Of a DNA stretch of 64,000 nucleotides, positions 26,889 through 58,476 are shown in pieces. The DNA is from Candidatus Poribacteria bacterium (GTDB taxonomy: Bacteria > Poribacteria > WGA-4E > PCPOR2b), in NCBI GenBank assembly GCA_965208325.1, contig OZ242326.1:192001-256000 (forward strand), written 5' to 3'. The notes beneath the pieces are model-generated. The model did no database searches, had not been told where the DNA came from, and worked only from the letters and a program-made list of their open reading frames with translations. The stretch's first letter is position 1; the number at the start of each line of letters is the position of its first letter. The translations under genes and the position numbers were made by a program.

Positions 26889-27689
26889 ATGAACCCCCCA
26901 ACTAACATTCATGCATTTATCAGCGTTGCTATCCTAATTGGCTTGATTCTCTCGGCACCCGGCTATGCCGCTATCGACCCCGATACCGCGGTGGCGGTCT
27001 GGCTCTTTAACGAGGGCGAGGGGAATGAAGTCAAGGACGAGACAGATAACCCTGCAAACCTGACGGGAGTGTTAAAGGGCAGGGAAATTACGTGGATAAA
27101 AGGTGTGTACGGTAACGCGGTAAACCTCGGAGTAGATGGCGATGTCGTAGCCGTTTCCGCGGCTTTCGGCGACGCAGCCGCTCCCACAGAAGAGATTACA
27201 ATCGTGGCATGGATTCGTTGGAATCCAAAAACCAACACCGACCTCTTTTTCTTCGTACCGCCTGAACCTTGGGATAACCGAATTGCAGTGCATTTCCCGT
27301 GGGGTGCGGACGGTATTGCATGGCAGTTTGGCAGGCCAATGGCAAACCTAAACGCCCCGATGCCAAAAAACTTTGAGGATGATTGGCATCACGTGGCGTT
27401 TACCGGCTCCGGTAAGAATATGGCGATTTGGATTGATGGCAAGATCGTCGCCGACAGGGCCGGCGTGACTCCCTTCGTACGCGGAAACAACCGCGCTTGG
27501 CATATCGGCGGTCGAGCTGGCACCACTTTCGAGGGCGGGGTTGACGAGGTGGCGGTTTTTAATGTGGTCTTGACCCAAGCAGATATCAAAGCAATAAAAG
27601 ATAGGGGACTCAGTCATGCCGTCGGATTAGCCGTCGATCCATCAGGCAAACTCACGACAGCTTGGGGCAACATTAAAACACGCGATTAA
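26889..27689 (+). CDS. Secreted LamG-like jelly-roll protein with a C-terminal WGxIK tail
   Basis: Signal peptide, VWLFNEGEG, WHHVAFT, FEGGVDEVAVFN, tail AVDPSGKLTTAWGNIK. Confidence 0.9.
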   Translation: MNPPTNIHAFISVAILIGLILSAPGYAAIDPDTAVAVWLFNEGEGNEVKDETDNPANLTGVLKGREITWIKGVYGNAVNLGVDGDVVAVSAAFGDAAAPTEEITIVAWIRWNPKTNTDLFFFVPPEPWDNRIAVHFPWGADGIAWQFGRPMANLNAPMPKNFEDDWHHVAFTGSGKNMAIWIDGKIVADRAGVTPFVRGNNRAWHIGGRAGTTFEGGVDEVAVFNVVLTQADIKAIKDRGLSHAVGLAVDPSGKLTTAWGNIKTRD

Positions 27690-27799
27690 CCGTGCGAAAA
27701 TCTTCTATGATGACGGATGGATTCGTGCGAAAACCAGACAGAATAGACATACGCCTAAAACTCATGCCATGTTCGTTCTAGCTGCAGCAACATCATAAT

Positions 27800-28567
27800 A
27801 TGGACGTATTTGACGCAATCGCCCGGCGCAGGAGCTGTCGCAGAGAGTTTCGGAAGGAACCCATCGCTCAATCCGATGTGGATAGGCTCATTGAAGCCGC
27901 GCGGTGGGCGCCATCCCCGTTTAATGTCCAACCGTGGGAGTTGCTCATAATCCGAGAAACGCAGGGCAAAAATGCGATCGCCGACCTTACCGAACGGTGC
28001 ATCATTGAGCAGTTCAAGGATGCGAAGTTTCTTGATGACAACAGCCGCTGGATGCGCTTGACGGAGGAAGAGTGGCATGCACACGGCGACGGAATTCTGC
28101 TCGCAGATCATGTTGACCTGCCGCCAATCTTACTGGAAGATCCAAAAAAACTCGCGCCGCTCCTCAAGAATGCAAAACACTTGAGCGTCTTGGGGCATCT
28201 GGGCGCAGGGCGAAAACCTGCGGAAACAATCTCCAACCTCATTCGAAACTCCCCCCTGTTAATGCTGGTATTGATGGATTGCCGAAAACGTCCGCCGGGG
28301 GACGGCGGGCGGCGCTGGATGTCGCTGAGCATGGGAGCCATGATTCAAAACCTACTGTTAGCCGCGGCAGCGCTTGAAATTGGCACACAGTTCATCAGCG
28401 CACCCCTGGAACGTCACGGGGATTGCGAACAGATTCGCCAGATTTTCAACATTCCTTCCAACTACGAAGTCGTCAGCCTATTGCGGCTGGGATATGCGGA
28501 GTCAATGCCTGCAAAGTCCGTACGTTTGGGTGCATCCGCATTTGTTAAACATGAAAAATTCAAGTGA
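27800..28567 (+). CDS. Nitroreductase family protein
   Basis: AIARRRSCRREF, APSPFNVQPW, QNLLLAAAALEIG. Confidence 0.9.
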   Translation: MDVFDAIARRRSCRREFRKEPIAQSDVDRLIEAARWAPSPFNVQPWELLIIRETQGKNAIADLTERCIIEQFKDAKFLDDNSRWMRLTEEEWHAHGDGILLADHVDLPPILLEDPKKLAPLLKNAKHLSVLGHLGAGRKPAETISNLIRNSPLLMLVLMDCRKRPPGDGGRRWMSLSMGAMIQNLLLAAAALEIGTQFISAPLERHGDCEQIRQIFNIPSNYEVVSLLRLGYAESMPAKSVRLGASAFVKHEKFK

Positions 28568-28582
28568 AAGGTAGAAACAAGC

Positions 28583-28984
28583 TTGAAAGATTCAATAAAT
28601 CACGCGCAATCAACGCAATCCGCAGAAGCACAGACGTCCGAATCCGCTCAGGGTTTTGAACCGGAAAAACACGAAATCTCGGTTCATGAGCTCAAGCAGA
28701 AACGCGATCGGAATGAGCCGATTGTGTTGCTTGATGTTCGCGAGCAGGACGAGTATGACATTGTCCATTTTGAAGACGCGCTTTTAATCCCCGTGAACGA
28801 GTTGCCCCAGCAGGCGCATCGGCTTGGTAGAGACAGCGAAATCGTCATCCATTGCCATACAGGGATGCGAAGCATGTACGCGGCTGCCTACTTATATCAA
28901 CTCGGTTATCAGAACGTTAAGAGTTTAACCGGTGGGATTGATCAATGGGCGATTGAGATTGATTCGACGCTGAATCGCTACTGA
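28583..28984 (+). CDS. Rhodanese-like sulfurtransferase (MoeB C-terminal type)
   Basis: LDVRE, HCHTGMRS, LTGGIDQW. Confidence 0.9.
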   Translation: MKDSINHAQSTQSAEAQTSESAQGFEPEKHEISVHELKQKRDRNEPIVLLDVREQDEYDIVHFEDALLIPVNELPQQAHRLGRDSEIVIHCHTGMRSMYAAAYLYQLGYQNVKSLTGGIDQWAIEIDSTLNRY

Positions 28985-29033
28985 ACCGCGTGGCGCCCGG
29001 CACGCATCGCCGCATTCGTCAAATGCGTTGAAT

Positions 29034-30263
29034 CTACGCTGCTTGCGCGTCATAACATACCTTCCCGCCGACTACAGTTAGCAGATTACAAGCGGATTCA
29101 TCAAAAATCTGCGTTACGGCCGATTGCCCGCTGTTCGGAAGTTCGATGGCGGTAAAGTCTGCCTGCCACCCTTTTTCTAACTTCCCGACGTGATTCAATC
29201 GAAGCCCGCGTCCGCCGTTAATTGTCGCCATGTCTAGAAGCGTTTCTGGTGGAAGGCATTCCCACGCTTTGCGCAAGAATCTAAGTTCATCAAGCATGCT
29301 TAAGGACCAGTTACTGGCGAGGCTGTCTGTTCCAATAGCCACGTTTACACCGGCTGCAAGCAGCCGCAAAAGCGGGTGATTGGTATGGTAAAAGTAGTGA
29401 TGGCTGCGTGGGCAAAATACAACTGACGCACCGCTGGCCGCAAGCGTCTGAATGTCTTCATCTGTCAGGTAGTTACAATGCGCTAAAAGCGGACGCGTTT
29501 CTAACACGCCAAGTGCCTTCATGTGCTGCACCGGCGTCAGATTCGGCGGCACCCAGTCTGCCATTGGAATCTGTAAAGCCTTGAGCAAGTCAGCGAATGC
29601 ACCCATCCCTGACGCCAAAAACTCAATCTCCAATTCGGTTTCTGACAAATGTGTGCACAACGGTAATTGGCGAGATAACGCGAATTCACAACAGTGTCGG
29701 TAAAGGGAGTCAGCCGTTGAATACGGGGCGTGGGGCGACACACCGTACGTTAGGAGAGCATCCGGCTCTGGCGCAGTTTCGAGATGTGAATTAATCCGCC
29801 GAACTCCAATCTGCGACCGTTCCGGTGAAAATCCCGTCGTTTCGAAAAACACCACTTTGCGGATGGGCGCGTCTTTGAGGGTTTGTACAGATTTTCCAAA
29901 TCCATGAATGTCGCCAACGGTAGTTGTTCCTCCAGCTAAACTCAATTGCACGCCGCTTTGGACTGCACTATCAACCCATGCCTTGTCCGACTGCTGATTG
30001 CGAACAATCTGCAGCAGCCAATCCGTAAGCTGCGGCGTCCGGTCAACAAACGCACCGTGGTTAGTCAACTCAAGATGGGTGTGGCTGTTTACCAATCCCG
30101 GGAGGATGGTTGCCTCGCCCAAATCTCGTATTGGACCTGCCCCCGCGCGTCGAAGTGTTGAATACCGGCCAACATCCACAATCTTCGACCCATGAATCGC
30201 AACCGCGCCGTTGTCGATAATCTGGCGGCTATTGGGAAGGATAAACTTCGCACGGAAAATCAC
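29034..30263 (-). CDS. Metal-dependent amidohydrolase (deaminase/chlorohydrolase-like)
   Basis: PGLVNSHTHLE, SPHAPYS, THLSE, AHCNYL, GTDSLASN. Confidence 0.9.
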   Translation of the reverse strand: MIFRAKFILPNSRQIIDNGAVAIHGSKIVDVGRYSTLRRAGAGPIRDLGEATILPGLVNSHTHLELTNHGAFVDRTPQLTDWLLQIVRNQQSDKAWVDSAVQSGVQLSLAGGTTTVGDIHGFGKSVQTLKDAPIRKVVFFETTGFSPERSQIGVRRINSHLETAPEPDALLTYGVSPHAPYSTADSLYRHCCEFALSRQLPLCTHLSETELEIEFLASGMGAFADLLKALQIPMADWVPPNLTPVQHMKALGVLETRPLLAHCNYLTDEDIQTLAASGASVVFCPRSHHYFYHTNHPLLRLLAAGVNVAIGTDSLASNWSLSMLDELRFLRKAWECLPPETLLDMATINGGRGLRLNHVGKLEKGWQADFTAIELPNSGQSAVTQIFDESACNLLTVVGGKVCYDAQAA

Positions 30264-30288
30264 CCGATGTTCTTCACCTTTGTCTCTG

Positions 30289-31215
30289 CTACGGTTTATA
30301 TAGCTGCTCAGGTTGCCAGCCGGGGGGATACCCTATCGGCCAGTCTGAATAGCCAAACAACTCACGGAGTCCGTCCGGATTTCCACACAGCCAAAAAAAC
30401 ATCTCTGCTGTGTCAAACCAGTCTCTGAATTGCTGGCGCGGCGGCTGAAGGAAGGGGCCGTCAACGCTATATTCCGCAGTGGCAGGGTCAAAGTCCGGTT
30501 CAACCACCCAGTCTCGCTCCGGTTGAACCGTCCGCCAATAACAGTATTTCAGCATATTGCGGATCCCGTGAGCCGTGGATTCGGACCGGCGATGCCAAAT
30601 TGAATAGACGGTGATAAAAATTGTGCCTGCCGATGCGGCGGTGTTGACCGAAGAACGAATGTTCGAATAATGCCCCATGCACCTCGAAAGCGTAAAATAG
30701 AAATGAGATGTCGGTACCAGACCCGTCGGTCCGAGTTCTACAGGCGTGTCCTGCGGATAATAGAATACCTGAAGGTGGTTGAGTGCCGGTCCGTGGCGGG
30801 AACCGCCGTCTCTATGCCAGCCCTGCGCCGGTGCGGGACATTCGATTCGATGGTTAGCCACCCCTTTTGGAAGCATGAAGTTTTTGCCCAACAGCGACCG
30901 CACTGCCCCTGCAGCCTGCGGGTTGAGAAGAACATGTTCAATGAACCAATCTTCGTTAAGCAGTTCGATAGGCTGGCCCGTCGGATTTGCAATCAAATAA
31001 TCGTATGTCCGTCGGTTTATCTCGTCCGGAACGGCGTCCTCTAGCATCAGATACCCCATTTTGCAGAATTCTACGACCTGGTTGTCGGTGAGCGAAGGGG
31101 TAATCTCGCTCAAAACCACGCCATCTTTCACTTGAAGACCGGGTTTGGAAAGTTCTACGGTTTTTGTGTCAGTTCTCACTGGGCTAATTGCCCCTTTAAT
31201 CGGCGGTCTTGCCAT
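30289..31215 (-). CDS. PhyH-family Fe/2OG dioxygenase
   Basis: WHRDG, YYPQDTP, GPTGLVPTSH, SIWHR. Confidence 0.85.
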   Translation of the reverse strand: MARPPIKGAISPVRTDTKTVELSKPGLQVKDGVVLSEITPSLTDNQVVEFCKMGYLMLEDAVPDEINRRTYDYLIANPTGQPIELLNEDWFIEHVLLNPQAAGAVRSLLGKNFMLPKGVANHRIECPAPAQGWHRDGGSRHGPALNHLQVFYYPQDTPVELGPTGLVPTSHFYFTLSRCMGHYSNIRSSVNTAASAGTIFITVYSIWHRRSESTAHGIRNMLKYCYWRTVQPERDWVVEPDFDPATAEYSVDGPFLQPPRQQFRDWFDTAEMFFWLCGNPDGLRELFGYSDWPIGYPPGWQPEQLYKP

Positions 31216-31522
31216 CTGTCCATAGTCCCTTCAGTTTCAGTGTGTTACCAAATTATTGTCGTGTCTCATTATCAGCGATTTCGTTATAACCTGCTTAAAA
31301 ATCCATCTAATTGAACATCATTAGTCTTTTGCCAAAGCCCCGGAGGGGATCTTCGATCATCAAATCGAAGATAGTTTTTTCAGTAAAATAGAAACGTCAA
31401 TTCACGATACATCGAAAGCCCCAGCCGGGCGGCAGACTACTGTTGCAGGAATTCACACACCGCTGCATCCTCTCCGGAGGTTGAATTTAATAAAACGAGA
31501 TGAGTGTGCTGAGTCAATGACG

Positions 31523-31963
31523 TCATCCTTCCCGATTCGAACGCTCCTGCGAATGTGAAGGCGTATGCTGATGGGCGGAAGACACACCTTCCGGGCGTGG
31601 GTCGGGCGCTTCGGCTGGATTTACAATGTAGTCGAAACTCAGCCACAAACTGCGAGAATACCGGAAGAAGAAGATGGGAAAAAGTACACAGAAGACAATC
31701 CAAAGAATAACGTTTACATAATATGCGATAGGTGTCAAATACTCCAACGCAAAAAAACCGGCAAATGCCATGATAATCGTCGCGCCGTAGTTGATATACA
31801 TCGCACCCACAAAATATCCCATCTCGCGCTCAAATTTGAAATAGCAGCAACTACACTCCGAGCACATTTTGAACATACCCGAAAACAAATCGCCTTCACC
31901 ACAAGATGGACATTTAAGGCGCAGCCCCGCGCTCAAAATTCCGCGCACGCTGTGTTTCCGCAT
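31523..31963 (-). CDS. DUF983-like membrane protein
   Basis: CPSCGEGDLF...CSCC, EREMGYFVGAMY, two TM helices, FRYSRSLW. Confidence 0.85.
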   Translation of the reverse strand: MRKHSVRGILSAGLRLKCPSCGEGDLFSGMFKMCSECSCCYFKFEREMGYFVGAMYINYGATIIMAFAGFFALEYLTPIAYYVNVILWIVFCVLFPIFFFRYSRSLWLSFDYIVNPAEAPDPRPEGVSSAHQHTPSHSQERSNREG

Positions 31964-32275
31964 GTATTGTTCCGCCTCCTTGAACTCGCGCCTTCAATAC
32001 GTTATAATTTGCGTTGCGGCTGAATCCTTATTCTAGCACAGCTCGTCAGGGATGTCAATTCAGTCTTGATACCGGGCGGCAATGATTTTTCCTGACTGGT
32101 CTCGATGAATTCCACCCGGACTCTACCCCGAAAAAAACTTAAGCGCCCAGGCACCTCCCGGAAAATCTGTTCGGTATTTACGCGGTTAATGCGGTTCCAT
32201 GATGTACGCATTCCAAAACGAGCGCAAACCTAGTTTACGGCATATTCCAAACATATTTTAGAACGCATTGACTGT

Positions 32276-33433
32276 ATGAATTACCTTCAACCGATTGCAT
32301 TGCGGATTAACACGTACGTCAATAACGTCATCACTGGAAGGCAAAAGGGTCCTATGCCCGTCCTTATCCAATTCGTGCTAATGCCGATGAGTTGGCTTTA
32401 CAGTGTTGTCGTCAGGGTTCGGAACAGACTCTACAGTTCAGGGATGCTCAAAATAAAGCGGTTGCCCTGTCCCGTTATCAGCGTGGGGAACATCGTTGCC
32501 GGCGGCACCGGTAAAACGCCAACCGTAATCTGGATTGCTAAGCATCTACAAGCCAAGGGATACCCTGTAGCGGTGTTGCTGCGGGGATATGGGCGGCAAT
32601 ACCGAACGGCAACGACAGTTGTCTCGGATGGGGTCCAAATGCTCGGTGGCGTTGAGGAATGCGGCGATGAGGCGATGATGATTGCCCGAGCCGTGCCCGG
32701 ATGCATCGTCATCGTCAGCAAAAATCGATACGGTGCAGGGTGCGCTGCCATCCGGATGATGGGCGTCTCGACGGGGGTACTAATCTTGGACGACGGCTTT
32801 CAACATCGCCGCCTGTATCGCGGCCTCGACATCGTCACGGTGGACAGCACACAACCGGTTGGTACCGGTAATTTGCTGCCGGCGGGCACATTGAGAGAGA
32901 CGAACGCTGCGTTGAAACGCGCTGACGTCGTTTTGCTCACGCGAACCGATCAGCAGTTAGCTCCAACTTGTCAATCTACTAGACCCGCTGATCAGAAGAG
33001 CGCCGCGTTGGAAGGCATCGTTGATCCGGACAATATTTACGAAAGCTGCCATTGTCCTACGGCGCTCTACGAATTGAAATCGAGGCAACCCGCCCCGCTG
33101 GATCGGCTGAACGGGAAGCGAATACTCGCCGTGTGCGGCATCGGTGCGCCCGACGCCTTCGCCGAAACCCTTCGCCAACATGGCGCCGCGCAGGTTACTC
33201 TCATCGCATTCCCCGACCACCATCGGTACCGCTCGGACGACTATAGGCATATTAGCGCCCAATTCGGCGAGATCGGCGCTGATATGATAGTGACGACTGA
33301 AAAGGACGCCCAACGAATGGCCGGTTTCGAAGGGTTGGGGTGCTTTGTGTTAGCAGTTACACTGGAGATTACCAAGAACCAAATCGGGTTCAGCCGCCGG
33401 CTGATGCACGCTATTCGCCCGACGCATTCTTAA
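32276..33433 (+). CDS. lpxK: Tetraacyldisaccharide 4'-kinase
   Basis: ISVGNIVAGGTGKTP, RGYG, GDEA, LDDGFQHR, FPDHH, TTEKD. Confidence 0.95.
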   Translation: MNYLQPIALRINTYVNNVITGRQKGPMPVLIQFVLMPMSWLYSVVVRVRNRLYSSGMLKIKRLPCPVISVGNIVAGGTGKTPTVIWIAKHLQAKGYPVAVLLRGYGRQYRTATTVVSDGVQMLGGVEECGDEAMMIARAVPGCIVIVSKNRYGAGCAAIRMMGVSTGVLILDDGFQHRRLYRGLDIVTVDSTQPVGTGNLLPAGTLRETNAALKRADVVLLTRTDQQLAPTCQSTRPADQKSAALEGIVDPDNIYESCHCPTALYELKSRQPAPLDRLNGKRILAVCGIGAPDAFAETLRQHGAAQVTLIAFPDHHRYRSDDYRHISAQFGEIGADMIVTTEKDAQRMAGFEGLGCFVLAVTLEITKNQIGFSRRLMHAIRPTHS

Positions 33434-33536
33434 CACACCTCGCACGTCTCATGTTTAAATTCGACATTTGACACAAATTGTGGTAAACTACGGCACAGGC
33501 GTCAACGGCGAAACGCCCAAAAAGGAGAGGTACGGC

Positions 33537-33854
33537 ATGTACGTTATCATCGCACCAATTCAGATTAAGGATGGACACAGAGATGCCTTCATAGAAGCCA
33601 TGCTGGACGATGCTAAAGGCTCAATGAAAAATGAGCCCGGCTGTCTGAGATTTGATGTGATTCAAGACAGCGGCGACCCGAATCGCATATGGCTCTACGA
33701 GGTTTACGTAGATGAGGCAGCGTTTGAAGCCCATCGTCAAGCCCCCCACTTCATTAAGTGGCGTAATACCGTCGAGGACTGGCGCGATGAAGGCCCCAAG
33801 GGCGCCGGTTTGGGTAGTTACAACATTTGGCCCTCGGACAGCGACTGGAAATAG
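33537..33854 (+). CDS. Antibiotic biosynthesis monooxygenase/LsrG-like protein
   Basis: EPGCLRFDV, LYEVY, FEAHRQAPHF; GGAGAGG before ATG 33537. Confidence 0.88.
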   Translation: MYVIIAPIQIKDGHRDAFIEAMLDDAKGSMKNEPGCLRFDVIQDSGDPNRIWLYEVYVDEAAFEAHRQAPHFIKWRNTVEDWRDEGPKGAGLGSYNIWPSDSDWK

Positions 33855-33954
33855 AACTTGTTAGTAACATCACAATCCAACGCAGCACCACACGGTTGGA
33901 GCGATCTCCGAATCGCGACACACTCCCCAAACGTACTTTCCCTTACCAACAGGA

Positions 33955-33986
33955 ATCAACCGACCGAAAAGGGAGGGCGATAGTTT
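33955..33986 (+). repeat. 27-nt hairpin plus AGTTT; other copies at 62234-62265 and 62338-62369
   Basis: ATCAASYGACCGAWWAGGGARSGCGATAGTTT in three intergenic copies. Confidence 0.8.
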
Positions 33987-34019
33987 GCCTATAGTCTTCA
34001 CTTCTCCGCTCCCGAACGT

Positions 34020-34670
34020 TTAAGCGTCGGTTGACGCAGCCACCCAACGAATTGCTTGACTGACCAGCTTTCGGTAGTTTGGATTTCCGTACGCCATCGC
34101 GTCGTGCCCGTGTTGGATGTATACAATCGGGGAGTTTCCATAACGATGCGTCCAGCCTAGTACCGGCGCGCTGTCCCGATGCTCTGTGCGAAGCAGGACA
34201 TGTACCTTTGCGTCGACGGCATAACCCTTGTAAGTTTCGTCCTGTATCTCAAAATCCGTGATTCCCTCCGTCACAGGGTGATTGGGGTCGGCAATTTTTA
34301 CACTGTATCGGACATCGTGCCTGACCGTATTTTCGCCTGTTGTCCAGACACCGCCGACAATTCGATTGAATTCATCCCATTCCCGGAACGAGATTAGCGC
34401 GTGGTGCAGTGAGACTATGCCAACGCCGTGATTTAACAGATCCACGTATGCCGCACGCTGCGCGGGTGTGATTTCCTGCCACATGTCGTAAAACACAAGC
34501 GCATCATAATCCTTTGCGCCTTCTATACTCAGATGTTGGAACGCATTTGGGAAGGTCTCGGCTTCATAGCTGAGATTTTCAAGGCTGTCGAACATTTCCC
34601 AGAACGGTTCCGGTTGGAAATCGTGTCCGCCGGTAATCACTAACACGTGGCTGTTTTGCTTTGCGGTCAT
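34020..34670 (-). CDS. ThuA-like domain protein
   Basis: ITGGHDF, GVGIVSLHH, HPVTEGITDFEIQDETY, YIQHGHD. Confidence 0.88.
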   Translation of the reverse strand: MTAKQNSHVLVITGGHDFQPEPFWEMFDSLENLSYEAETFPNAFQHLSIEGAKDYDALVFYDMWQEITPAQRAAYVDLLNHGVGIVSLHHALISFREWDEFNRIVGGVWTTGENTVRHDVRYSVKIADPNHPVTEGITDFEIQDETYKGYAVDAKVHVLLRTEHRDSAPVLGWTHRYGNSPIVYIQHGHDAMAYGNPNYRKLVSQAIRWVAASTDA

Positions 34671-34724
34671 TGTTTAGCTCCTGAGTTGATAACAATTGGA
34701 AAAACCGTATAAAGTTCGATCCAC

Positions 34725-35396
34725 TTAAATCTTTTTTCGTTTGCGAATTAAAGCCGGAATGAGCGATATGAGAACAATGAAGACGCCTGCGCCCGCTAGA
34801 TACAGCAACGTCAACGTGATATTTCCTTCGCCGACGTTTACAGCAGCACCGAGTTGGACGAAAGCAACTGTACCGGGCAGCATGCAGATCCACGAAACCA
34901 GAATGTACGTGGAAAACCGGATTTGCGTGAGTCCGTAGGCGTAATTCTGTAAATTGAAGGGAAAGATTGGAACAAGCCGCGTTATCATCAACATACGCCA
35001 GCCCTGTTCCTTAACCCCGTTGTCAATCTTTTGAAAATGAGCGTTGCTCGCAACCCAAGATGCAACCATCTCACGGGCGGTATATCGGGCAATCAGAAAT
35101 GCGCACGACACCCCAATTGCCGATCCGATTGAGGCGTAGACCGTGCCCCAGAGCGGCCCAAACGCGAGCCCGGACAGTGCGGTTACGGGCAAGCCCGGCA
35201 AAAAGAACACAACTGCAGCCACATAAAAGCCGATAAAAGTCAGCGGTCCGATTGCGCCAAAGCTGTCAATCTTTTCCTTAATTTTCGGGATATTTTCTAA
35301 ATTTAGATATTCAGCCGCGCCCGAAAATCTCAAACCCCCGTACACAACACCAATTGCAGCCAAGGCGATAGTCAGTTTGATTAAGTTTTTGTTCAT
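34725..35396 (-). CDS. TVP38/TMEM64 (DedA superfamily) membrane protein
   Basis: FFLPG, GLAFGPLWG, TRLVPIFPFNLQNYAYGLT. Confidence 0.92.
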   Translation of the reverse strand: MNKNLIKLTIALAAIGVVYGGLRFSGAAEYLNLENIPKIKEKIDSFGAIGPLTFIGFYVAAVVFFLPGLPVTALSGLAFGPLWGTVYASIGSAIGVSCAFLIARYTAREMVASWVASNAHFQKIDNGVKEQGWRMLMITRLVPIFPFNLQNYAYGLTQIRFSTYILVSWICMLPGTVAFVQLGAAVNVGEGNITLTLLYLAGAGVFIVLISLIPALIRKRKKI

Positions 35397-35440
35397 CCTG
35401 CTATTCTATTTGAGAACGCCATTCCCAGAATCCAGCCATT

Positions 35441-36238: not shown

Positions 36239-36280
36239 AGTTATTTTCTTTCGGCGTAAGTTGACGGTTCCCGATTGGTG

Positions 36281-48557: not shown

Positions 48558-48574
48558 TCTAGCCTAGTTAATCC

Positions 48575-48647: not shown

Positions 48648-48699
48648 CTTGAAATCTCTACAGCCCCATCATGCATGATGGGGCTGCATTCTATCGTAA

Positions 48700-49495: not shown

Positions 49496-49501
49496 TCTAC
49501 C

Positions 49502-50167: not shown

Positions 50168-50287
50168 AGGGAGTTTCAAATTAGACGCGAAACACATGAG
50201 GTAAGCCAACCAAGAGCGGCGTCGGCAGCTGGAGAGTTCACCGATCTAATCTGAACGAATAACAATTTATAAAGGAGGAATGCGACT

Positions 50288-50809
50288 ATGAATCGCCGGT
50301 ATGTACTATTCTTTGCGCTGTTGCCGCTAGCGTTAGCGCTTGTGATTGTGATTCCGAGAATTACGGCTGAGGCGCCGCCCGCTCAACCGGCGTCGCAAAA
50401 CGCCACGGCCGAATTGGTCGAACTGCTTAAAATCTGGAAACTCATTGATGCGGTGTCGCCGGAATCTGAGCAATCTGTGCAATTGTTAACGAAATTCAAC
50501 AAGTTAGAAGACCTGAAAGCACAGTATCGGCGAGAACACCGAAGCGCGATAAATCAGCTAAAGCAATTAAAAGCGGCGAAACTTGATTCTGAGGAGAAAA
50601 TTGCTGAACTTCAGACTGCGCTAGATGAGTATCGTCAAGTCGAGGACAACTTCATTGCGGGGAGAAAAAAGATTAAGGATGAAATTAGCAAAATTTTGAC
50701 CGTCGAGCAACAGGCGAAATTCGAGGTTTTCAGTTACAGTTACCGCCAAGATCTAAAGCTAACGCTGCAATCCCTAATTGCTCTGCAAGACCAGCCGCGG
50801 TCGAAGTGA
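50288..50809 (+). CDS. Periplasmic Spy/CpxP-like helical protein
   Basis: Signal peptide; ILTVEQQAKF (LTxxQ-type motif); AGGAGG RBS. Confidence 0.7.
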   Translation: MNRRYVLFFALLPLALALVIVIPRITAEAPPAQPASQNATAELVELLKIWKLIDAVSPESEQSVQLLTKFNKLEDLKAQYRREHRSAINQLKQLKAAKLDSEEKIAELQTALDEYRQVEDNFIAGRKKIKDEISKILTVEQQAKFEVFSYSYRQDLKLTLQSLIALQDQPRSK

Positions 50810-50882
50810 GTGCATCGAAATTTGGTGAGAATTGGACCCGTTAAACTTGAAGTAGTGTCAATTAAGGCTGATCCGTCAATCG

Positions 50883-52664
50883 CTAAAACACATGACCGAT
50901 TCCGTAGGTGATTACGGGCTTGAGCGAGAATTTCCCGGTAATGTCCAGAGGGTAGGCCAAATCCAATCGATATACGCGAGATTCGGTCAATTTGGGAAGG
51001 CTAAACCTTAATCCAAAACCGATGCTCCGCTTTGACGCCCGAAGGTTGAACGCTGCTCCATTCCAGACGTACCCTACATCTGCAAAGATAGCCGATCCAA
51101 GCACAATCAGCGGCTCCACCTTTTTGAAAATTCCGCCTCTAAAGATTGTTCTGCTTTCGAGATTCAGTAGCATTTTTTTCTCTCCGCTAAACGCCCAACT
51201 GCTATAGCCGCGCAGCCCGCTCGTCCCGCCGAGAATCACCTGCCGTCGCCCGCCAAGGTCGAATCCCATCACTGTTGAGATTTGCGCGACAAGCGTCTGA
51301 TACAGCAAATCCTTGCATGTCGTTTTAATTTTCGCCGTGAGAACCGAGTCGCCAAGCTGTTCTGTCAATCGCGTTGCAAATTCAGTATGCGCATTCAGAA
51401 AAAGGAAATCTTGATGCGCATGAGATTGCGCGAGTCTCACACTTAAGTTTGTCTGTGTCCGATCCGAATCGAATAGTCGCGAGGCATGACCAATCGAAAC
51501 ACCGTACCTATATCCGACTTCAAAATCTTCGACGCGTCCCATCTGATTCAGGAAACGGGTGCGAATAAAATCAACATGCCTCCGTCCTAACGTTATCCCT
51601 ACGATTTTTAAATTGCGATTCTCAAAATTGGCATCAGATTGTGCAATTTTCTCAATTAGATTAAAGTCGGATTTCTGAGAGGATGCCCAGAGGGAAACCT
51701 GCGTTTGCTTGTGACGGCTGCCAAAGTAATGCGTGGCTCTGGCGGAATGGATTTGCTGGCTGCGTGTATAGGTGTCAGTTTTTTTGCCGTTCTCATACCA
51801 CCGAATTTCATCAATGGACTCGGATAACGTAAAATCAGCGCTCCATCGGGTTTTCAGGGAGTATTGCGGGCGCCGCAACCGAACCTGCCACGAATCCCCT
51901 TCCCGTTTCTGCGTAAATTGTCCATCAAATTCCCAGTAAGAATCGAACATGCGCGATGCTGTATAACGGCTTCTGATTAAACTGCGCGGCTCTTCCCCTT
52001 CCTCGCGGATGAGCTGGTAACGAATCCGTCCCCTATTCCCGGATCCGAACAAGTTTGAATCCGAAAGCATGATTAACAAGTTGGAACTATCTTTGTTAAA
52101 TGCGGGTAAATCTAACGCGGGTATAAATGACCATAAATCGGCGACTTCAACTTGAATCCGGACAAGCTGCGTTTCCGAATCTCGGCTGGCTACAATCTCG
52201 GCTTTTCCTAGATACGGCTTTCGGCGAAGGATACGCTCACTTTCCAATTCATCCTCCACCGTGTACGTATCGCCGACCTGGAAGAGAAGTTCTCGTTGAA
52301 TCACGTGATCGTTCGATCGAGTGTTCCCCGTCACGGTAATTTTCCCGATTTTACCTTCGTCAATGGGAATACGTAGGTAAACACCATCAGAGAACCGTTT
52401 GATCGCTACCTGTTCTTCATCAATGCGTGCGAATTGAAATCCATTACTCTGATAAAACACCACAATCTGTTCGAGGTCTTGCTTTAGATTTCCCGCGTCG
52501 TAATCCGCCCCGATTTGGCTGTGCATCACATCACTAATCTGATCCTCTGTATACGCCTCATTCCCGACAAGGACAATATTGCGGATGAGATCGGAATTTG
52601 CATGTATGGATTTGGGAAGCACAGCGGTTATGACAATTAGTGCGAGAAGTTCAAATAGCTTCAT
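50883..52664 (-). CDS. Omp85 (BamA/TamA-like) outer-membrane protein with about two POTRA domains
   Basis: POTRA patterns (IVLVGNEAY, ITVTGNTRSNDHVIQREL), DSNLFGSG, LGGTSGLRGY, FADVG, GFGLRF, C-terminal YGIGHVF; likely start ATG 52664. Confidence 0.88.
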   Translation of the reverse strand: MKLFELLALIVITAVLPKSIHANSDLIRNIVLVGNEAYTEDQISDVMHSQIGADYDAGNLKQDLEQIVVFYQSNGFQFARIDEEQVAIKRFSDGVYLRIPIDEGKIGKITVTGNTRSNDHVIQRELLFQVGDTYTVEDELESERILRRKPYLGKAEIVASRDSETQLVRIQVEVADLWSFIPALDLPAFNKDSSNLLIMLSDSNLFGSGNRGRIRYQLIREEGEEPRSLIRSRYTASRMFDSYWEFDGQFTQKREGDSWQVRLRRPQYSLKTRWSADFTLSESIDEIRWYENGKKTDTYTRSQQIHSARATHYFGSRHKQTQVSLWASSQKSDFNLIEKIAQSDANFENRNLKIVGITLGRRHVDFIRTRFLNQMGRVEDFEVGYRYGVSIGHASRLFDSDRTQTNLSVRLAQSHAHQDFLFLNAHTEFATRLTEQLGDSVLTAKIKTTCKDLLYQTLVAQISTVMGFDLGGRRQVILGGTSGLRGYSSWAFSGEKKMLLNLESRTIFRGGIFKKVEPLIVLGSAIFADVGYVWNGAAFNLRASKRSIGFGLRFSLPKLTESRVYRLDLAYPLDITGKFSLKPVITYGIGHVF

Positions 52665-52701
52665 CGGCGAGTTTAATCGTGAATTGACGCACCGCGCAAT
52701 C

Positions 52702-54837
52702 CTAGATTCTACTAGAGGTTTGTCTGGCTTGAACAGTGTCATCGGGGATTGCACGTTTGTGATTGGATAGGATGGTTTCAACCAACATGAGAACAAGGGC
52801 GATTAGCAGCAGTTCACCCCAAATCTCCTTACCGACTCGATAGTCTTTGAGCGTTTGCCTCAACGACTCTTGGGTTACCGAGATGTCTCCCATGGCACCA
52901 ATTCTTTTGGATGCATCGTGAATCGGTATCTGCCGAAGACGCGATTCTGTTGGATCGACGTTGACCGCAAAAAAATCACGTATCCGCCTATTGTTGCCCT
53001 CGATTTCAACCTGATAAATCCCTGGCGTATCCGTACCGCCAAAAATCACCGTTCCATCTTCCGCAATTGGTACCGGCGTGGTTTTCGTTTCACCTGCATG
53101 TCCCACTGAAGCAGTCGCCGCAACCCCTTGCCGGTAACCTGCTGCGAAAGGTTGCCCGACAAGCAGAGATTTGTGCCGGGCCGATTGAACCGCCTTCGCG
53201 TAAAGCACAGTTTGCTGTAACAACGGCAAAAATAGGGGATTGACAAGCAAAGTTGAAGCTTTTCTGTCGGTTGCCGAAACATTAAACAGCAGTGCAGTCC
53301 CTAACGCAATTGGGCGTTCGATAAGAAAAGGTGTCGCATCGCTGAATTGTGCGATCACTTTCCCTTGTTCGCTAGGCTGTAGCGTCAAACCGCTAATAAA
53401 CTGTGGGGCGTATTCGCCGGAAAAGTCGCTTGGTTGATAAACTTCAACAATCGCGTGATCCAAATGGCTTCCAGATACCGTTAGCGGAGTGTCCCACCGG
53501 CGCGGCGGACCAAAACTTGCTGGAAGCCAGTCAGCAAACTCATTGTAGGTCGTTAGGTCGAGATCGGCATTGACAAAAATGATTACACTCTTTCCAGCAC
53601 GCATGAACGATTGGAGCTGCTGCCGCGCAGACGGTGAAAGCGTAGGCAAGTCCGCTAAAATTAGAACATCATAGTCGTCTAGCGGGTAATCGTCAAACGC
53701 CGTAACTGAACAACTTGCGGGCAGAATCGTATAATCCACACCTGGTTTGAGTTGGGCTTCGGGATTCAATGCAAGGGTTAAATATAGTGTCTCATCGCCC
53801 ACGCAAAGCACACGAATTTGACCGTAGGCGCAAAGCGTAAAATAGCGGCGATTATCGGCGGTCAATCGATCCGCCGACAATTCAACATAACCCGTGTGGG
53901 TACTAGGAGATTTAAAACGATGCGTAAAGGCCGCTTTGGTCGACTGATGTAATGCCGATTCAGATTGATCGCTTTGAGTAATCTTCAAGTCGGGAACAAT
54001 GGATTGCCGCTTTTCGCCGTTAACAAATAGCGTTAAAACCGTTTCCGGCAACGACCCGTCAGAATGAACGCCGACTTTAGTGTTCAGTTGAAACGGGCGA
54101 TTTACACCAATTAGTTGGGTAGATTCGCCAAGTTCTTCAATACTAATGTTATCTCCAGCTTCCTCCCCGACGGGAAGTAGAAAAATCCGCGCACCTGATC
54201 GATTGGGCGCGCGAACCCAGTTATCCCAGCCATTCTGATTAAAATCGGAAATGAGGTAAATCTCCTTATTCCGATCGATTGACTTTTCGAGAATATCATG
54301 CGCCATTTCGATGCTGGACGGTACGTACGTCGAGCGAAACGAAACCTGTGCTTCGTCAATGGCGGACATCACCTGTTCAAGATCTTTTGTTAATTGCCGG
54401 AATATTGGGTTGGGAATGTCAGACATCAATATGAGAGCTGCACTGTCGCCGCGTGGGAGCAATTGGACAACTTCGCGCGCCATCGCCCTCGCCGTTTCAA
54501 ACCGTTCTCCCTGAATGCCTTTATACCCCATGCTATAAGAGTTATCCAGTATGATGACGTTGCTTGCGTTCGCTCTGGCGTCCGCGAGGAGAAACGGACT
54601 CTTGAGCAATGGCCGAGCCAGTGCGAGAGCAATAAGAATGATTATCGCCATGCGGAGAAACAGAATCAATAGATGTTTAAGCTGAATACGCCGAACGCTT
54701 TGTCGATGCGCGGCCAACAAAAACATCAAGCTGCTAAAATCCACTGTCTTTGCTTGTCGGCGGCTCCACAAATGGATAATCAGCGGCACGGCAGCAGCAA
54801 GCATTCCAAGCAGAAAAATCGGGTTAAGAAATCCCAC
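52702..54837 (-). CDS. BatA N-terminal domain plus vWA domain membrane protein
   Basis: FLNPIFL...PLIIHL...FSSLMFL...LARP, MIDAS-like ILDNSYSM, ISDF, FAVNVDPTES, C-terminal TM. Confidence 0.88.
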   Translation of the reverse strand: MGFLNPIFLLGMLAAAVPLIIHLWSRRQAKTVDFSSLMFLLAAHRQSVRRIQLKHLLILFLRMAIIILIALALARPLLKSPFLLADARANASNVIILDNSYSMGYKGIQGERFETARAMAREVVQLLPRGDSAALILMSDIPNPIFRQLTKDLEQVMSAIDEAQVSFRSTYVPSSIEMAHDILEKSIDRNKEIYLISDFNQNGWDNWVRAPNRSGARIFLLPVGEEAGDNISIEELGESTQLIGVNRPFQLNTKVGVHSDGSLPETVLTLFVNGEKRQSIVPDLKITQSDQSESALHQSTKAAFTHRFKSPSTHTGYVELSADRLTADNRRYFTLCAYGQIRVLCVGDETLYLTLALNPEAQLKPGVDYTILPASCSVTAFDDYPLDDYDVLILADLPTLSPSARQQLQSFMRAGKSVIIFVNADLDLTTYNEFADWLPASFGPPRRWDTPLTVSGSHLDHAIVEVYQPSDFSGEYAPQFISGLTLQPSEQGKVIAQFSDATPFLIERPIALGTALLFNVSATDRKASTLLVNPLFLPLLQQTVLYAKAVQSARHKSLLVGQPFAAGYRQGVAATASVGHAGETKTTPVPIAEDGTVIFGGTDTPGIYQVEIEGNNRRIRDFFAVNVDPTESRLRQIPIHDASKRIGAMGDISVTQESLRQTLKDYRVGKEIWGELLLIALVLMLVETILSNHKRAIPDDTVQARQTSSRI

Positions 54838-54893
54838 AGTTTCTCTCTTCTCTATGAATTACGGCGATTAAACCAAAATGCGCCTAACCTAAA

Positions 54894-55092
54894 ATTATAG
54901 TTTAAACACTGAACAAAGTTCAAGGCGAAAATAGGGGCCAATTCGCCGACTAAATGGGACCGAAAGACAGTGGCAACAGACGATTGGGGATTCAAAATAG
55001 GCGGCGATCCGCCGCATTCTACCGCTGGCGGTTCAGCGAGAGCTGAATGACTGTATTTTGTTGTTGCGTCTGCACGCCGTTTATGATATATT
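54894..55092. promoter_or_regulatory. Divergent sigma70 promoters between the BatA/Omp85 genes and the TolB-like cluster
   Basis: Minus strand TTGAAC-18-TATAAT (54923-54894); plus strand TTGCGT-17-TATATT with TG (55064-55092). Confidence 0.5.
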
Positions 55093-55272
55093 GTGAATTA
55101 TCTGCGTTTGTGCCGTGTAGCATTGCCGGTTAGAATTTTGAAAAAAGATTCGTCACTGAAGTAAATGAGAGGCAAACGATTTAATTGATTTTATTCACGA
55201 TGCAGGAACTACGTAGTGGTTCGCAAAAAAGGGCAAGACATTAAGGAAGTTGAAATCCGAAAGGAGTTCGCG

Positions 55273-56289
55273 ATGCGGATGAAATACACAACGGCCCTGT
55301 ACATGGTAACGCTCATCTCTGCAGCGTTATTTAACGGAATGATGCTAAGCGAAGTGCTTGCAGAGGCGCCCAAGGATGAACTGATTGCTTTCTCGACAAA
55401 TCCGGTTCAGGAGAGTGGAATCTGGTTGATGGATCCTGATGGTAAGAACCAACGCGCACTTCTAGTAATAGAGGGGAAGCCAGTGCCGCTCGGGTTGGTT
55501 TGGTCACTAGACGGAACCCGAATTGCATTTCACACCGAAATAAATGAAAACATCGATGTTTATGTAGTTGATGCTAATGGTCAAAATCTTTTGCAGCTCA
55601 CCAACCATGAGGCGGAAGATAGCTGGCCCACATGGCATCCGGGCGGTCAGAAACTCGCCTTTTGCACCAACCGCGATGGTAATTATGAAATTTATGCGGT
55701 CACATTGGCTGGACAAGGATTGGTCAACCTCACCAACGACCCCGTTAGGGACAGAGAGCCGGCATGGTCCCCGGATGGCCGAAAGATTGCCTTCGCTTCC
55801 AAGCGAGGCAAGAGCCTAGGAGATATCTGGGTGATGGACAATCATGGCGGCAACCTTCAAAATCTTACAAATGTCCGTGGTCAAGACTTACAACCTAGAT
55901 GGTCGACAGACGGTGAGAAGGTTGGGTGGACCTCGCGTCGTGACGGCTCGGAGGAGATTTGGGCAATGGACGCAGACGGCGCCAACGAGTTGAAAGTCAG
56001 CAGCAAGCAAGACCCAAATCCCGGCGGCAGTTTCGACTGTTCAGAGCCAAGTTGGAAACCCAACGGTAAAGAGATTGCGTCAACCGCGCTAGGCGGGGGT
56101 AGTGCAACTATCCGCATTCACGCTGCGAACGGTAGTCTACAGCGGTTAGACCTTACACGCCAGGGCAGGCAAAACCGTTCTCCCGCGTGGTTTGACCCAG
56201 ACTTCGCTATAGTGGAATTTTCAGTATCTCCAGCCGAGAAACAGGTTTTAACCTGGGGTTGGCTCAAGCGGATGGGGCAGGAAAATTGA
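55273..56289 (+). CDS. Secreted TolB-like PD40 beta-propeller with a WGxLK tail (paralog 1)
   Basis: AAGGAG before ATG 55273, signal peptide, WSPDG-type repeats, tail SVSPAEKQVLTWGWLK. Confidence 0.9.
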   Translation: MRMKYTTALYMVTLISAALFNGMMLSEVLAEAPKDELIAFSTNPVQESGIWLMDPDGKNQRALLVIEGKPVPLGLVWSLDGTRIAFHTEINENIDVYVVDANGQNLLQLTNHEAEDSWPTWHPGGQKLAFCTNRDGNYEIYAVTLAGQGLVNLTNDPVRDREPAWSPDGRKIAFASKRGKSLGDIWVMDNHGGNLQNLTNVRGQDLQPRWSTDGEKVGWTSRRDGSEEIWAMDADGANELKVSSKQDPNPGGSFDCSEPSWKPNGKEIASTALGGGSATIRIHAANGSLQRLDLTRQGRQNRSPAWFDPDFAIVEFSVSPAEKQVLTWGWLKRMGQEN

Positions 56290-56365
56290 AACGCTCCTAT
56301 CCACTCAGTTTTCGGCCTCCTCCTTATCGAAACTCGCTTCATGACGCCAAGCAATGAGGCGGTCT

Positions 56366-57415
56366 ATGCGATTTAAAAACACGTTGTCCATTCACATGAC
56401 AGTGTTCGCTGTTGTTTTTCTTGCCAGCTTTTTCACGATGGTCGTCGCATTTGCGCAAGCACCCGATAGGGCAACTATTGCATTCTCCACCAACGACGAA
56501 GCCCAAGGCGGCATCTGGTTGGTAGACATTGATGTGCGCGGTGGACAGGGAAAAGGCGATGTCCATGTCCAAAATCAGCGCGTTCTTCTGGCAATTGATG
56601 GAAACCCCATTCCATTGGGTTTGGTGTGGTCGCCGGAAGGGCGAAGAATTGCCTTCCATACGCAGATTGATGAAAATATTGATGTTTATGCGGTCGACAG
56701 CGATGGACAAAACCTGCGTCGACTCACCGACCATGAGGCGGAAGATAGTTGGCCGAGTTGGCATCCGGGCGGTGAAAAAATTGCTTTCTGCACAAACCGA
56801 GATGGGAATTTCGAAATCTACGTGATGTCGTCAACTGGGCAGGGGTTATTCAATCTCACCAACGACCCCGCCAAGGATAGGGAACCCGACTGGTCGCGAA
56901 ATGGACGCCTAATTGCATTTGCTTCCAAGCGCGGAAAAAGCTTGGGGGACATATGGGTGATGGATAGCAGCGGTGGAAACCTGAAAAATATAACGAATGT
57001 CCGCGGTGAAGATATGCAGCCTAGGTGGTCGTGGGACGGTCAGAAAATTGCTTGGACATCTCGCCGAAACGGGAACGATGAAATTATGACGATGGACGCC
57101 GCAGACGGCGGCAATCTACTAAAGATTAGCGATCTCAAGGATGCGAGATCGCAGGGGCGACCCAATCGGGAACCGAGCTGGAAACCCGACGGCAGGGCAA
57201 TCGCCGCGCCTGCCCTTGGCGGCGGCAAGTCGTTCATCATGATTCATCCGGCAGATGGGAGTTTGCAATGGCAGGACCTTCCCGCTGTGGGCATTCAAAA
57301 CCGTTCCCCGACATGGTTCGATCCTGAGTATGTTATAGAAGAATTCTCCGTATCCCCCGCCGAGAAACAAGTCTCAACATGGGGTCGGATTAAACAGGCG
57401 GTACAAAACAATTAA
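56366..57415 (+). CDS. Secreted TolB-like PD40 beta-propeller with a WGxIK tail (paralog 2)
   Basis: Signal peptide, PD40 repeats, tail SVSPAEKQVSTWGRIK. Confidence 0.9.
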   Translation: MRFKNTLSIHMTVFAVVFLASFFTMVVAFAQAPDRATIAFSTNDEAQGGIWLVDIDVRGGQGKGDVHVQNQRVLLAIDGNPIPLGLVWSPEGRRIAFHTQIDENIDVYAVDSDGQNLRRLTDHEAEDSWPSWHPGGEKIAFCTNRDGNFEIYVMSSTGQGLFNLTNDPAKDREPDWSRNGRLIAFASKRGKSLGDIWVMDSSGGNLKNITNVRGEDMQPRWSWDGQKIAWTSRRNGNDEIMTMDAADGGNLLKISDLKDARSQGRPNREPSWKPDGRAIAAPALGGGKSFIMIHPADGSLQWQDLPAVGIQNRSPTWFDPEYVIEEFSVSPAEKQVSTWGRIKQAVQNN

Positions 57416-57495
57416 CGTATCTCTCGTCATGAATGTACCTGAAAACCCTGGTCTCCAATCCGCTTAAAGGCTTGGAGCTCGAAAGGAGATGAGCT

Positions 57496-58476
57496 ATGCG
57501 CGTGGTTAAATTTGTCGCTTTCGTGCTCCTTAGCGGCATGTTAGCAAGCGTGGAGTCGGCAGAAGCACCCAAAGAAGAGACGATGGCGTTTTCCACCAAT
57601 CACGTTGGGGAAGCCGGCATCTGGTTAATGGATCCTGACGGGGGTAACCAACGCCCGCTTCTGGTAATAGGAGGCAACCCAATACCGCTGGGTATAGTGT
57701 GGTCTTCTGACGGCAGCAAAATTGCCTTCCATACAGAAATAAATAAAAATATAGACATCTATGTGGTTAATGCCGACGGGCAAAATCTTCGGCAACTCAC
57801 CGACCATGAGGCAGAGGATAGTTGGCCAACCTGGCACCCCGCCGGTCAAAAACTTGCCTTTTGCACCAACCGAGATGGGAATTTTGAAATCTATTCGGTC
57901 ACGTTGATCGGGCAGGCATTGAATAACCTCACCAATGATGCGGTTAAGGACAGGGAACCGGCGTGGTCCCCAGACGGTCGTCAGATTGCTTTCGCTTCGA
58001 AGCGAGGCAAAAGCCTTGGGGATATATGGGTCATGGATAACAGTGGCGGAAACCTGAAAAACCTTACAGACGTTCGCGGGCAGGACACAGAACCTAGATG
58101 GTCATGGGACGGTCAGAAAATAGGGTGGACCTCCCGACGAAATGGAAACGACGAAATCTGGATTATGGACAGTGCTGATGGCGGAAATCTGTTGCAAATT
58201 TCGGACGTCAAGGATAATAGCGACCCGAATCGGGAACCAACCTGGAAACCGGATGGGAAAAAAATCGCTTCGCCGGCGCTGGGAGGTGGCTCCGCGACTA
58301 TTCGCGTACACCCGACAGACGGTAGTCTAAAGTGGAATAACCTCCAACGCGTCGGCACGCAAAATCGTTCCCCAGCTTGGTTTGACCCGGACTTTGTTGA
58401 AGAATTTGCCGTATTCCCCGCCGATAAAAAAGTTTTGACTTGGGGTTGGCTAAAACAGGCCGGAACGGAAAATTGA
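57496..58476 (+). CDS. Secreted TolB-like PD40 beta-propeller with a WGxLK tail (paralog 3)
   Basis: AAGGAG RBS, signal peptide, PD40 repeats, tail AVFPADKKVLTWGWLK. Confidence 0.9.
   Translation: MRVVKFVAFVLLSGMLASVESAEAPKEETMAFSTNHVGEAGIWLMDPDGGNQRPLLVIGGNPIPLGIVWSSDGSKIAFHTEINKNIDIYVVNADGQNLRQLTDHEAEDSWPTWHPAGQKLAFCTNRDGNFEIYSVTLIGQALNNLTNDAVKDREPAWSPDGRQIAFASKRGKSLGDIWVMDNSGGNLKNLTDVRGQDTEPRWSWDGQKIGWTSRRNGNDEIWIMDSADGGNLLQISDVKDNSDPNREPTWKPDGKKIASPALGGGSATIRVHPTDGSLKWNNLQRVGTQNRSPAWFDPDFVEEFAVFPADKKVLTWGWLKQAGTEN

Follow-up and report, generated by a model that had tools for sequence, protein, structure and literature searches.

We analysed a stretch of 64,000 nucleotides (the window) that lies within a single 4.71-Mb contig (49% G+C) of a Candidatus Poribacteria bacterium (GenBank OZ242326.1, positions 192,001 to 256,000), and found that four predicted exported proteins encoded in it, one with a LamG domain and three with PD40/TolB-like beta-propellers, share the C-terminal end [AS]-V-x-P-x-x-K-x-x-x-x-W-G-x-[IL]-K, followed by three or six residues and the stop codon. 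An earlier note on this DNA had put forward the shared end, hereafter the TWG tail, as a candidate for a new sorting signal, and all four tails are indeed present, at the positions given below. Signal peptides were called by a simple hydrophobic-segment heuristic and by inspection by eye (SignalP was not used), so they are predicted ones. The features are as follows, in window coordinates.

26889..27689, strand +: exported LamG (Laminin_G_3) protein of 266 amino acids (aa); PF13385 67 bits, residues 92-234; AlphaFold2 model confident to about residue 244
26889..26969, strand +: predicted signal peptide of the LamG protein, residues 1-27 (...PGYA, then AIDP), by eye and heuristic; AlphaFold2 helix at residues 5-21
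27630..27677, strand +: TWG tail motif AVDPSGKLTTAWGNIK of the LamG protein; tail profile 22.6 bits; predicted local distance difference test score (pLDDT) 48-53
27678-27686, strand +: TRD after the LamG tail motif, then stop, from the translation of the reading frame
55216..56289, strand +: PD40/TolB-like beta-propeller protein 1, tailed; PD40 98 bits; TIGR02800 162 bits
to about 55362, strand +: predicted signal peptide of propeller protein 1
56221..56268, strand +: TWG tail motif SVSPAEKQVLTWGWLK of propeller protein 1, then RMGQEN; tail profile 33.8 bits
56354..57415, strand +: PD40/TolB-like beta-propeller protein 2, tailed; PD40 109.6 bits
56354-56455, strand +: predicted signal peptide of propeller protein 2
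57347..57394, strand +: TWG tail motif SVSPAEKQVSTWGRIK of propeller protein 2, then QAVQNN; tail profile 28.8 bits
57496..58476, strand +: PD40/TolB-like beta-propeller protein 3, tailed; PD40 118.3 bits
57496-57561, strand +: predicted signal peptide of propeller protein 3
58408..58455, strand +: TWG tail motif AVFPADKKVLTWGWLK of propeller protein 3, then QAGTEN; tail profile 28.6 bits

The open reading frames (ORFs) 26889-27689, 55216-56289, 56354-57415 and 57496-58476 terminate with ...AVDPSGKLTTAWGNIKTRD, ...SVSPAEKQVLTWGWLKRMGQEN, ...SVSPAEKQVSTWGRIKQAVQNN and ...AVFPADKKVLTWGWLKQAGTEN, respectively. The true start of propeller protein 1 is probably the ATG at 55273. All three propellers match the TolB model TIGR02800 with 146-162 bits, far below its cut-off of 343, and we therefore consider them TolB-like proteins rather than TolB. 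Another PD40/TolB-like gene of the window (5546-6490) is split in two frames, namely, 5546-5830, which includes a signal peptide, and 5927-6490; this broken gene is probably a pseudogene, and it ends with ...YLDLHWR without a TWG tail, as the earlier note had stated of a TolB-like pseudogene near position 5594.

The tail is by no means confined to the window. We ran the loose pattern [TS]WG.[ILVM]K over the 40,827 stop-to-stop ORFs of at least 50 aa in the genome, and also built a profile from the tails, which was iterated once and searched with the HMMER filters turned off, with matches reported to E<=10. Of the 59 matches of the loose pattern, 52 belong to ORFs longer than 100 aa and are no more than 15 aa away from the stop; the profile gave 143 matches, 130 of them at most 16 aa from the end of the ORF and 13 internal. 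These 13 score no more than 10.1 bits; they come from junk ORFs, 51-149 aa long, or else represent a weak second match in a terminally tailed protein, and there is no credible internal copy of the tail in this genome. In total, the tail is found 1-14 residues from the stop in 126 ORFs with a length of at least 90 aa, a frequency in the 4.7-Mb genome that is far above chance. An alignment of 111 tails gives the consensus V-x-P-x-G-K-L-x-T-T-W-[GA]-x-[ILV]-K plus 1-14 unconserved residues, with a conserved length of 18-20 residues; W is found in all 111, V at -10 and the final K in 109 each, K at -5 in 101 and P at -8 in 88. Behind the final K, 1-14 residues follow (mode 3); they are polar and Arg-rich (78 R and 26 K of 493) and contain no hydrophobic run, so that of the earlier statement that the tail has neither a transmembrane helix nor a basic end, the former part stands and the latter does not. 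The final K is almost never the very last residue, this being the case in 0 of the 111 tails of this genome, 0 of 82 from loci of other genomes and 2 of 155 database proteins, which fits a need for a leaving group. The TWG-tailed genes form 56 clusters of up to eight genes, 28 of which hold at least two, and include tandem arrays at 3061156-3070765, 3196094-3205548, 3217475-3224028 and 4371647-4386231 (genome coordinates). Such clustering suggests that small lectin-like and propeller genes have repeatedly been duplicated locally.

The carriers have in common predicted export rather than a fold. A signal-peptide-like N-terminus was detected by the heuristic in 112 of the 123 tailed ORFs of at least 200 aa, compared with 615 of the 2113 control ORFs (29%), and most of the 11 misses have a hydrophobic N-terminus by eye, in agreement with the earlier expectation that carriers would have signal peptides. 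After removal of the tail, the 126 carriers can be clustered into 74 LamG-like proteins, 35 PD40 proteins, one group of four, two pairs and nine singletons. A Pfam search with 20 representatives returned PD40 for six, 3keto-disac_hyd for three (one below the cut-off), and Cohesin, DUF3108_like and Laminin_G_3 for one each, while eight matched no family; a DUF1080-like domain is also among the passenger types, beside LamG, PD40, cohesin, DUF3108-like and Kelch. Other genomes add passengers such as Kelch (P0080) and a RhaB_D2-like duplicated domain (P0066). Thus, the tail occurs on at least eight unrelated passenger types, well over the two folds on which the suggestion of a portable tag had been based, and position, export and passenger diversity all agree with that suggestion. 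Conversely, relatives of the carriers lack the tail: 75 of the 86 LamG-like ORFs are tailed and 11 are not, and among 68 propeller-like ORFs, 35 are tailed, 14 have a type IX C-terminal domain (see below) and 19 have neither, indicating that these folds do not need the tail.

The structural predictions point in the same direction. The AlphaFold2 model of the window LamG protein has a mean pLDDT of 84.5, with the jelly-roll domain above 85 and the two blocks of the tail at 48 and 53 without any strand. Because of this low confidence and the lack of a strand, we consider the tail a linear motif, predicted to lie outside the LamG fold and to be unstructured on its own; the possibility that it is an integral strand of the passenger, which would have spoken against a sorting tag, is thereby disfavored for LamG. 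An alignment of 36 LamG homologs with about 30% identity to the window protein has no more than seven invariant columns, and K254 and W259 of the tail are two of them; we count this invariance amid such divergence as a probable sign of selection. Neither the five matches found in a search for longer relatives of the window LamG protein, all unrelated multi-domain proteins, nor an ESM Atlas search with the tail, which gave 0.81-0.84 to unnamed clusters of 38-43 aa, was informative, the former on fused forms.

To place the tail in a broader context, we searched other genomes with a 20-column tail profile (E<=0.001 per genome, with the best candidates, at most 147 per genome, being scored). The profile matches all 61 genomes in our sample of Poribacteria, which covers eight families and 14 genera, with 14-146 matches per genome and 5,761 in total among the candidates so scored, but none of the 40 genomes in a comparison sample from the phylum of an unrelated metagenome-assembled genome (MAG) labelled Deltaproteobacteria. 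This MAG (L117/L220) contains a perfect tail motif in a 28-aa ORF on a 3.8-kb contig, which is a gene in decay or else a fragment of Poribacteria that was mis-binned. In the GTDB species collection, at least 126 stretches match a degenerate DNA pattern written for P-x-G-K-[LIVM]-x-T-T-W-[GA]-x-[LIVM]-K, and the 80 loci that we examined are nearly all labelled Poribacteria; they contain 82 distinct instances, 81 of which stop 1-12 codons after the K, while one (L122) runs on into a C-terminal domain. Furthermore, a protein-database search with a 40-residue tail alignment yielded 120 proteins among the matches listed, of which 116 were new; in all 116 the motif is no more than 16 aa away from the end, and the organisms named are all members of Poribacteria. 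The strictly C-terminal position that the earlier note had anticipated is therefore borne out in this genome, in other genomes and in the database proteins alike.

Scans of the four whole window proteins and of their last 45 aa gave no match of the tail to any Pfam or NCBIfam model, and at E<=10 these last 45 aa match no NCBIfam family and no relevant Pfam family; a match to a sorting domain defined already, which according to the earlier note would have refuted its proposal, was thus not obtained. Full-text literature searches with the motif strings returned no description of it, 'TTWG' giving unrelated papers among those listed, and no such tail is described in the literature that we found on Poribacteria with type IX secretion, C-terminal sorting domains or LamG. 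Kamke et al., in their single-cell study of 2014, reported TIGR04183 domains on WD40 proteins of Poribacteria but found no Por structural genes, and the accessible portion of that paper does not mention a short tail (PMC3909097). The tail is likely to be an undescribed address or anchoring label.

A clue to its function is where related sequences are found. In this genome, 47 ORFs end with a domain of about 89 aa that starts with NYPNPFNPETW and that passed TIGR04183, a model of the type A C-terminal domain (CTD) of type IX secretion systems (T9SS), in five of the five ORFs tested (31-35 bits against a cut-off of 23); it also matches FlgD_ig (PF13860) and PF18962. These CTD-bearing ORFs have a median length of 827 aa, compared with 284 aa for the tailed ones. 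In 15 of the 47, the domain is preceded by V-x-P-x-x-x-x-x-T-T-[LF]-G-x-I-K-R-T-A-L-L-Q and then NYPNPF, i.e., by the tail with W replaced by L or F, at a fixed spacing. In this genome, terminal tails have W in 111 of 111 cases and the pre-CTD look-alike has L or F in 15 of 15, and the W form is found before CTDs in other families. Specifically, the W form fused to a CTD was detected in 36 of the 61 Poribacteria genomes, including deep families, with 49 matches, compared with none for a reversed control pattern; among the 61 genomes scanned, none of these fusions is from the window's own family. All 12 fused loci that we inspected read A-V-E-P-x-G-K-x-x-x-T-W-G-x-I-K, then 6-8 residues and NYPNPF, with 91-99 aa from the K to the stop. 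Since the first residue of the curated CTD models is the Y of YPNPF, eight residues after the K, the tail is N-terminal to the start of the models. In an AlphaFold2 model of the last 134 aa of one such protein (L122), the motif (residues 29-43) has a pLDDT below 50 and the CTD sandwich one above 90. The K lies about 31 aa before the IYxxxG motif in the CTD proteins here. According to the available part of Ye et al. (2025), PorU cuts in the coil that joins passenger and CTD, and for long CTDs the site precedes motif B by 19-30 aa (PMC11969387). The motif thus lies in the linker where PorU-type cleavage takes place, and the tail ends about where CTD cargo would end after cutting.

Candidates for the corresponding machinery are encoded elsewhere in the genome, including two PorU-like ORFs (genome coordinates, outside the window):

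4021554-4027898, strand +: PorU-like ORF, 2092 aa; 282 bits against a cut-off of 420
3715227-3721619, strand -: PorU-like ORF, 2116 aa; 257 bits against a cut-off of 420

The catalytic regions of both, which are 33% identical to each other, can be aligned to Porphyromonas gingivalis PorU (PDB 6za2) and RgpB and retain the G-H-G and C catalytic positions. With about 2100 aa, the two proteins are nearly twice as long as the 1156-residue P. gingivalis PorU chain (6za2), i.e., they have some 1000 extra residues, and each ends in a CTD-like segment of its own. We also found a diverged SprA-like ORF of 2188 aa (65 bits against a cut-off of 200), about nine PorV/PorQ-like barrels (best PorV score 104 bits against a cut-off of 250), and two secretins. 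One LamG TWG gene is located 2.8 kb from a PorV-like gene. PorU-like paralogs are present in 60 of the 61 Poribacteria genomes, with two or three per genome, and fall into three orthogroups, with the catalytic His and Cys present in each of the 21 sequences compared. The third type (family f3) is absent from this genome; in three of five genomes it has two TWG-tailed genes 2-4 kb downstream, compared with a TWG neighbor in two of 14 cases for the other two types. This third paralog (1650-1750 aa; L195, L201, L204, L198, L205) lies in a conserved block consisting of a HisH-like gene, a sensor kinase, an NtrC-type response regulator, a lipoprotein of about 200 aa and the PorU-like gene. A complex prediction for the catalytic region of PorU-like type B (21-row alignment) with the last 35 LamG residues scored 0.01 against a mark of 0.32, which, having been made without controls, says nothing either way.

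The tail can be compared with several known sorting signals. Like the T9SS type A CTD (TIGR04183/PF18962), it is found on exported proteins with signal peptides, is portable across passenger folds, occurs in genomes with PorU-, PorV- and SprA-like genes, and adjoins CTDs in the fused proteins; by the heuristic, the tailed ORFs have the N-terminal Sec signal peptide that marks T9SS cargo in the wide sense. However, it has 18-20 plus 1-14 residues instead of 70-90, lacks an immunoglobulin-like sandwich and motifs B (Y..G), D (GxY) and E (the terminal basic residue of the last strand), and corresponds to the part of the cargo that is kept on the mature protein, not to the part that is removed. 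None of the four window proteins belongs to TIGR04183/PF18962, as the sole TIGR04183 match in them is internal and scores 14.7 bits, below the cut-off. The shortest known CTDs, those of Prevotella intermedia with 43-55 aa, keep three strands and motifs B, D and E, according to the accessible text of the study that describes them (PMC11969387). As far as that text goes, they are T9SS signals that have been drastically shortened yet are cleaved and glycosylated, with a conserved cleavage-site motif in the linker, and they are predicted to bind PorV like long CTDs, while the TWG tail is less than half as long and lacks motifs B, D and E. The other comparison is with short motifs. In the signals of LPXTG/sortase, PEP-CTERM/exosortase and GlyGly-CTERM/rhombosortase systems, a motif is followed by a transmembrane helix and a basic cluster. 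The tail resembles them in that many unrelated secreted proteins of one genome share a short conserved motif near their C-terminus, for which cleavage and attachment are presumed, but only 1-14 polar, Arg-rich residues follow the tail, without a hydrophobic segment. Clan CD transpeptidases, such as ligases of the butelase/legumain type and the glycosylphosphatidylinositol transamidase, cut after one fixed residue and release a leaving group of a few residues. PorU is a member of the gingipain (C25) family, which belongs to the same clan as the butelase/legumain ligases, so the K plus 1-14 residues may be likened to such a site, by analogy only, the activity of the Poribacteria enzymes being putative.

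Taken together, these observations lead us to propose, tentatively, that the tail could be a portable, strictly C-terminal peptide read by type IX-like machinery, most probably by a PorU-like sortase that cuts near the K and brings about surface attachment. The roles of the tail in recognition, cleavage and anchoring are what we infer from sequence. In this scheme, a PorU-family sortase would recognise the tail and cut near the invariant K, and the new C-terminus would be joined to a surface glycan. In CTD-bearing cargo, the motif would be the mature-side flank of the sortase cleavage site, while CTD-less proteins would have kept this flank together with a very short leaving group, so that both classes would end with ...TWGxIK after processing. 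The outer membrane might be crossed by the CTD-less proteins through the SprA-like pore together with one of the PorV-like barrels, or through one of the two secretin systems. It is the position of the motif before CTDs, the near-absolute K with its short variable extension, and the multiple conserved sortase paralogs that lead us to this sortase-flank reading. Likewise, since the motif precedes T9SS type A CTDs and the genome has PorU-, PorV- and SprA-like genes, a variant form of type IX sorting is the most likely pathway; of the earlier idea of a tag for an uncharacterised pathway, the form of a new signal is thus supported, while the pathway itself is probably not wholly uncharacterised. 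A more specific proposal, which we regard as conceivable though doubtful, is that Poribacteria have a second, CTD-independent type IX-like branch, in which a foldless tag of about 20 residues suffices to mark over 100 small lectin-like and propeller proteins per genome and a dedicated PorU-family sortase trims off a leaving group of a few residues and fixes them to the surface.

Several observations weigh against the proposed sortase. All PorU-, PorV- and SprA-like matches are below the curated NCBIfam cut-offs, and GldL, GldM and GldN have no match in the genome, although the same searches matched none of the control genomes either. TWG genes of this genome are not linked to PorU-, PorV- or SprA-like genes, the nearest being 2.8-71 kb away, as random points would be, and the three genomes with TWG neighbors beside the third PorU-like type represent only two genera. 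Of the 47 proteins with a CTD in this genome, 32 lack the motif, and CTD handling in general can thus do without it. The residues after the K are unconserved, and in the fused protein L212 the K is directly followed by Pro, a poor P1' residue. To our knowledge, no known T9SS route takes CTD-less cargo through SprA. In the systems studied, as the available portion of the source describes them, PorU acts on CTD cargo that is held by PorV (PMC11969387). Moreover, with its 15-18 residues, the conserved stretch is long if it serves as a protease subsite and would be just as fitting for a docking peptide. According to a rival explanation that we consider rather unlikely, the tail would serve as a docking peptide without covalent attachment, or as a minimal export peptide, for a PorV/PorQ-like barrel or the SprA-like pore, by which the proteins would be carried to or held at the surface without cutting. 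There is a parallel in the uncleaved CTDs of PorU and PorZ, which hold these proteins on PorV and PorQ. The roughly nine barrels of the genome would offer docking sites, one LamG TWG gene lies close to a PorV-like gene as noted above, and the conserved stretch, predicted to be unstructured alone, resembles docking peptides in this as well as in its length. Known CTDs, too, can shrink to 43-55 aa and keep their predicted binding to PorV, as far as the accessible text of the P. intermedia study shows (PMC11969387). However, none of CTD motifs B, D and E is present in the tail, which is also not covered by the TIGR04183 model, and the coexistence of the tail with a full CTD in the fused proteins means that it is no simple replacement for one; besides, a docking peptide has no obvious need to sit within 14 residues of the C-terminus, and gene linkage overall is at chance level.

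Two further explanations would do without a surface sortase altogether. It is improbable, in our view, that the tail acts in the periplasm, as a handle for a chaperone or C-terminal processing protease or as a lysine tether to peptidoglycan of the kind known from Braun's lipoprotein (Lpp), with carriers that never cross the outer membrane. The carriers do have Sec-type signal peptides and no recognised outer-membrane export signal, TolB-like propellers are typically periplasmic, and two lysines of the tail are conserved (in 101 and 109 of the 111 tails). However, the motif also precedes the CTDs of proteins expected to leave the periplasm, the K is almost never terminal, unlike that of Lpp, and LamG, cohesin and Kelch are passengers typically found in binders that are secreted or located at the surface. 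As for the tail being a functionless relic, i.e., a linker left by deletion of the CTD and multiplied with the expansion of the LamG and PD40 families, we consider this very improbable, even though its homology to the pre-CTD linker and the predominance of two expanded paralogous families (74 LamG and 35 PD40 of the 126 carriers) would be expected from it. The conservation of the tail is poorly compatible with such an origin: the passengers have drifted apart to about 30% identity with W and K still invariant, and the tail is kept across eight families and 14 genera of the phylum and on at least eight unrelated passenger types. In addition, truncation would always have occurred 1-14 residues after the K, never leaving a partial CTD. 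Encapsulin or microcompartment targeting peptides and a streptide-like Lys-Trp crosslink were also considered and rejected: the carriers are large folded proteins with signal peptides.

Whichever way it is read out, the tag marks about 126 proteins in this 4.7-Mb genome and several thousand across the sampled phylum, most of them small lectin-like or propeller proteins of the kind that a sponge symbiont would use to touch its host or food. Together with the PorU-, PorV- and SprA-like genes, it also makes the puzzle of 2014, i.e., T9SS-type domains without secretion genes, a testable one. Should the tag prove to be a signal for a sortase or for docking, type IX-like sorting would reach beyond Bacteroidota, a sorting signal would be cut to about 20 residues, few enough to be grafted onto reporters, and annotators would have a simple rule to predict the surface proteome of an uncultured phylum. 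If the CTD-independent branch proposed above is real, the tail would be the shortest known Gram-negative sorting signal, and the first signal of the T9SS family whose conserved element stays on the mature protein.

Finally, directly upstream of the three tailed propeller genes of the window, on the opposite strand (52702-54837, strand -), lies a gene for a 711-aa membrane protein with an N-terminal double-transmembrane segment (MGFLNPIFLLGMLAAAVPLIIHLW...).

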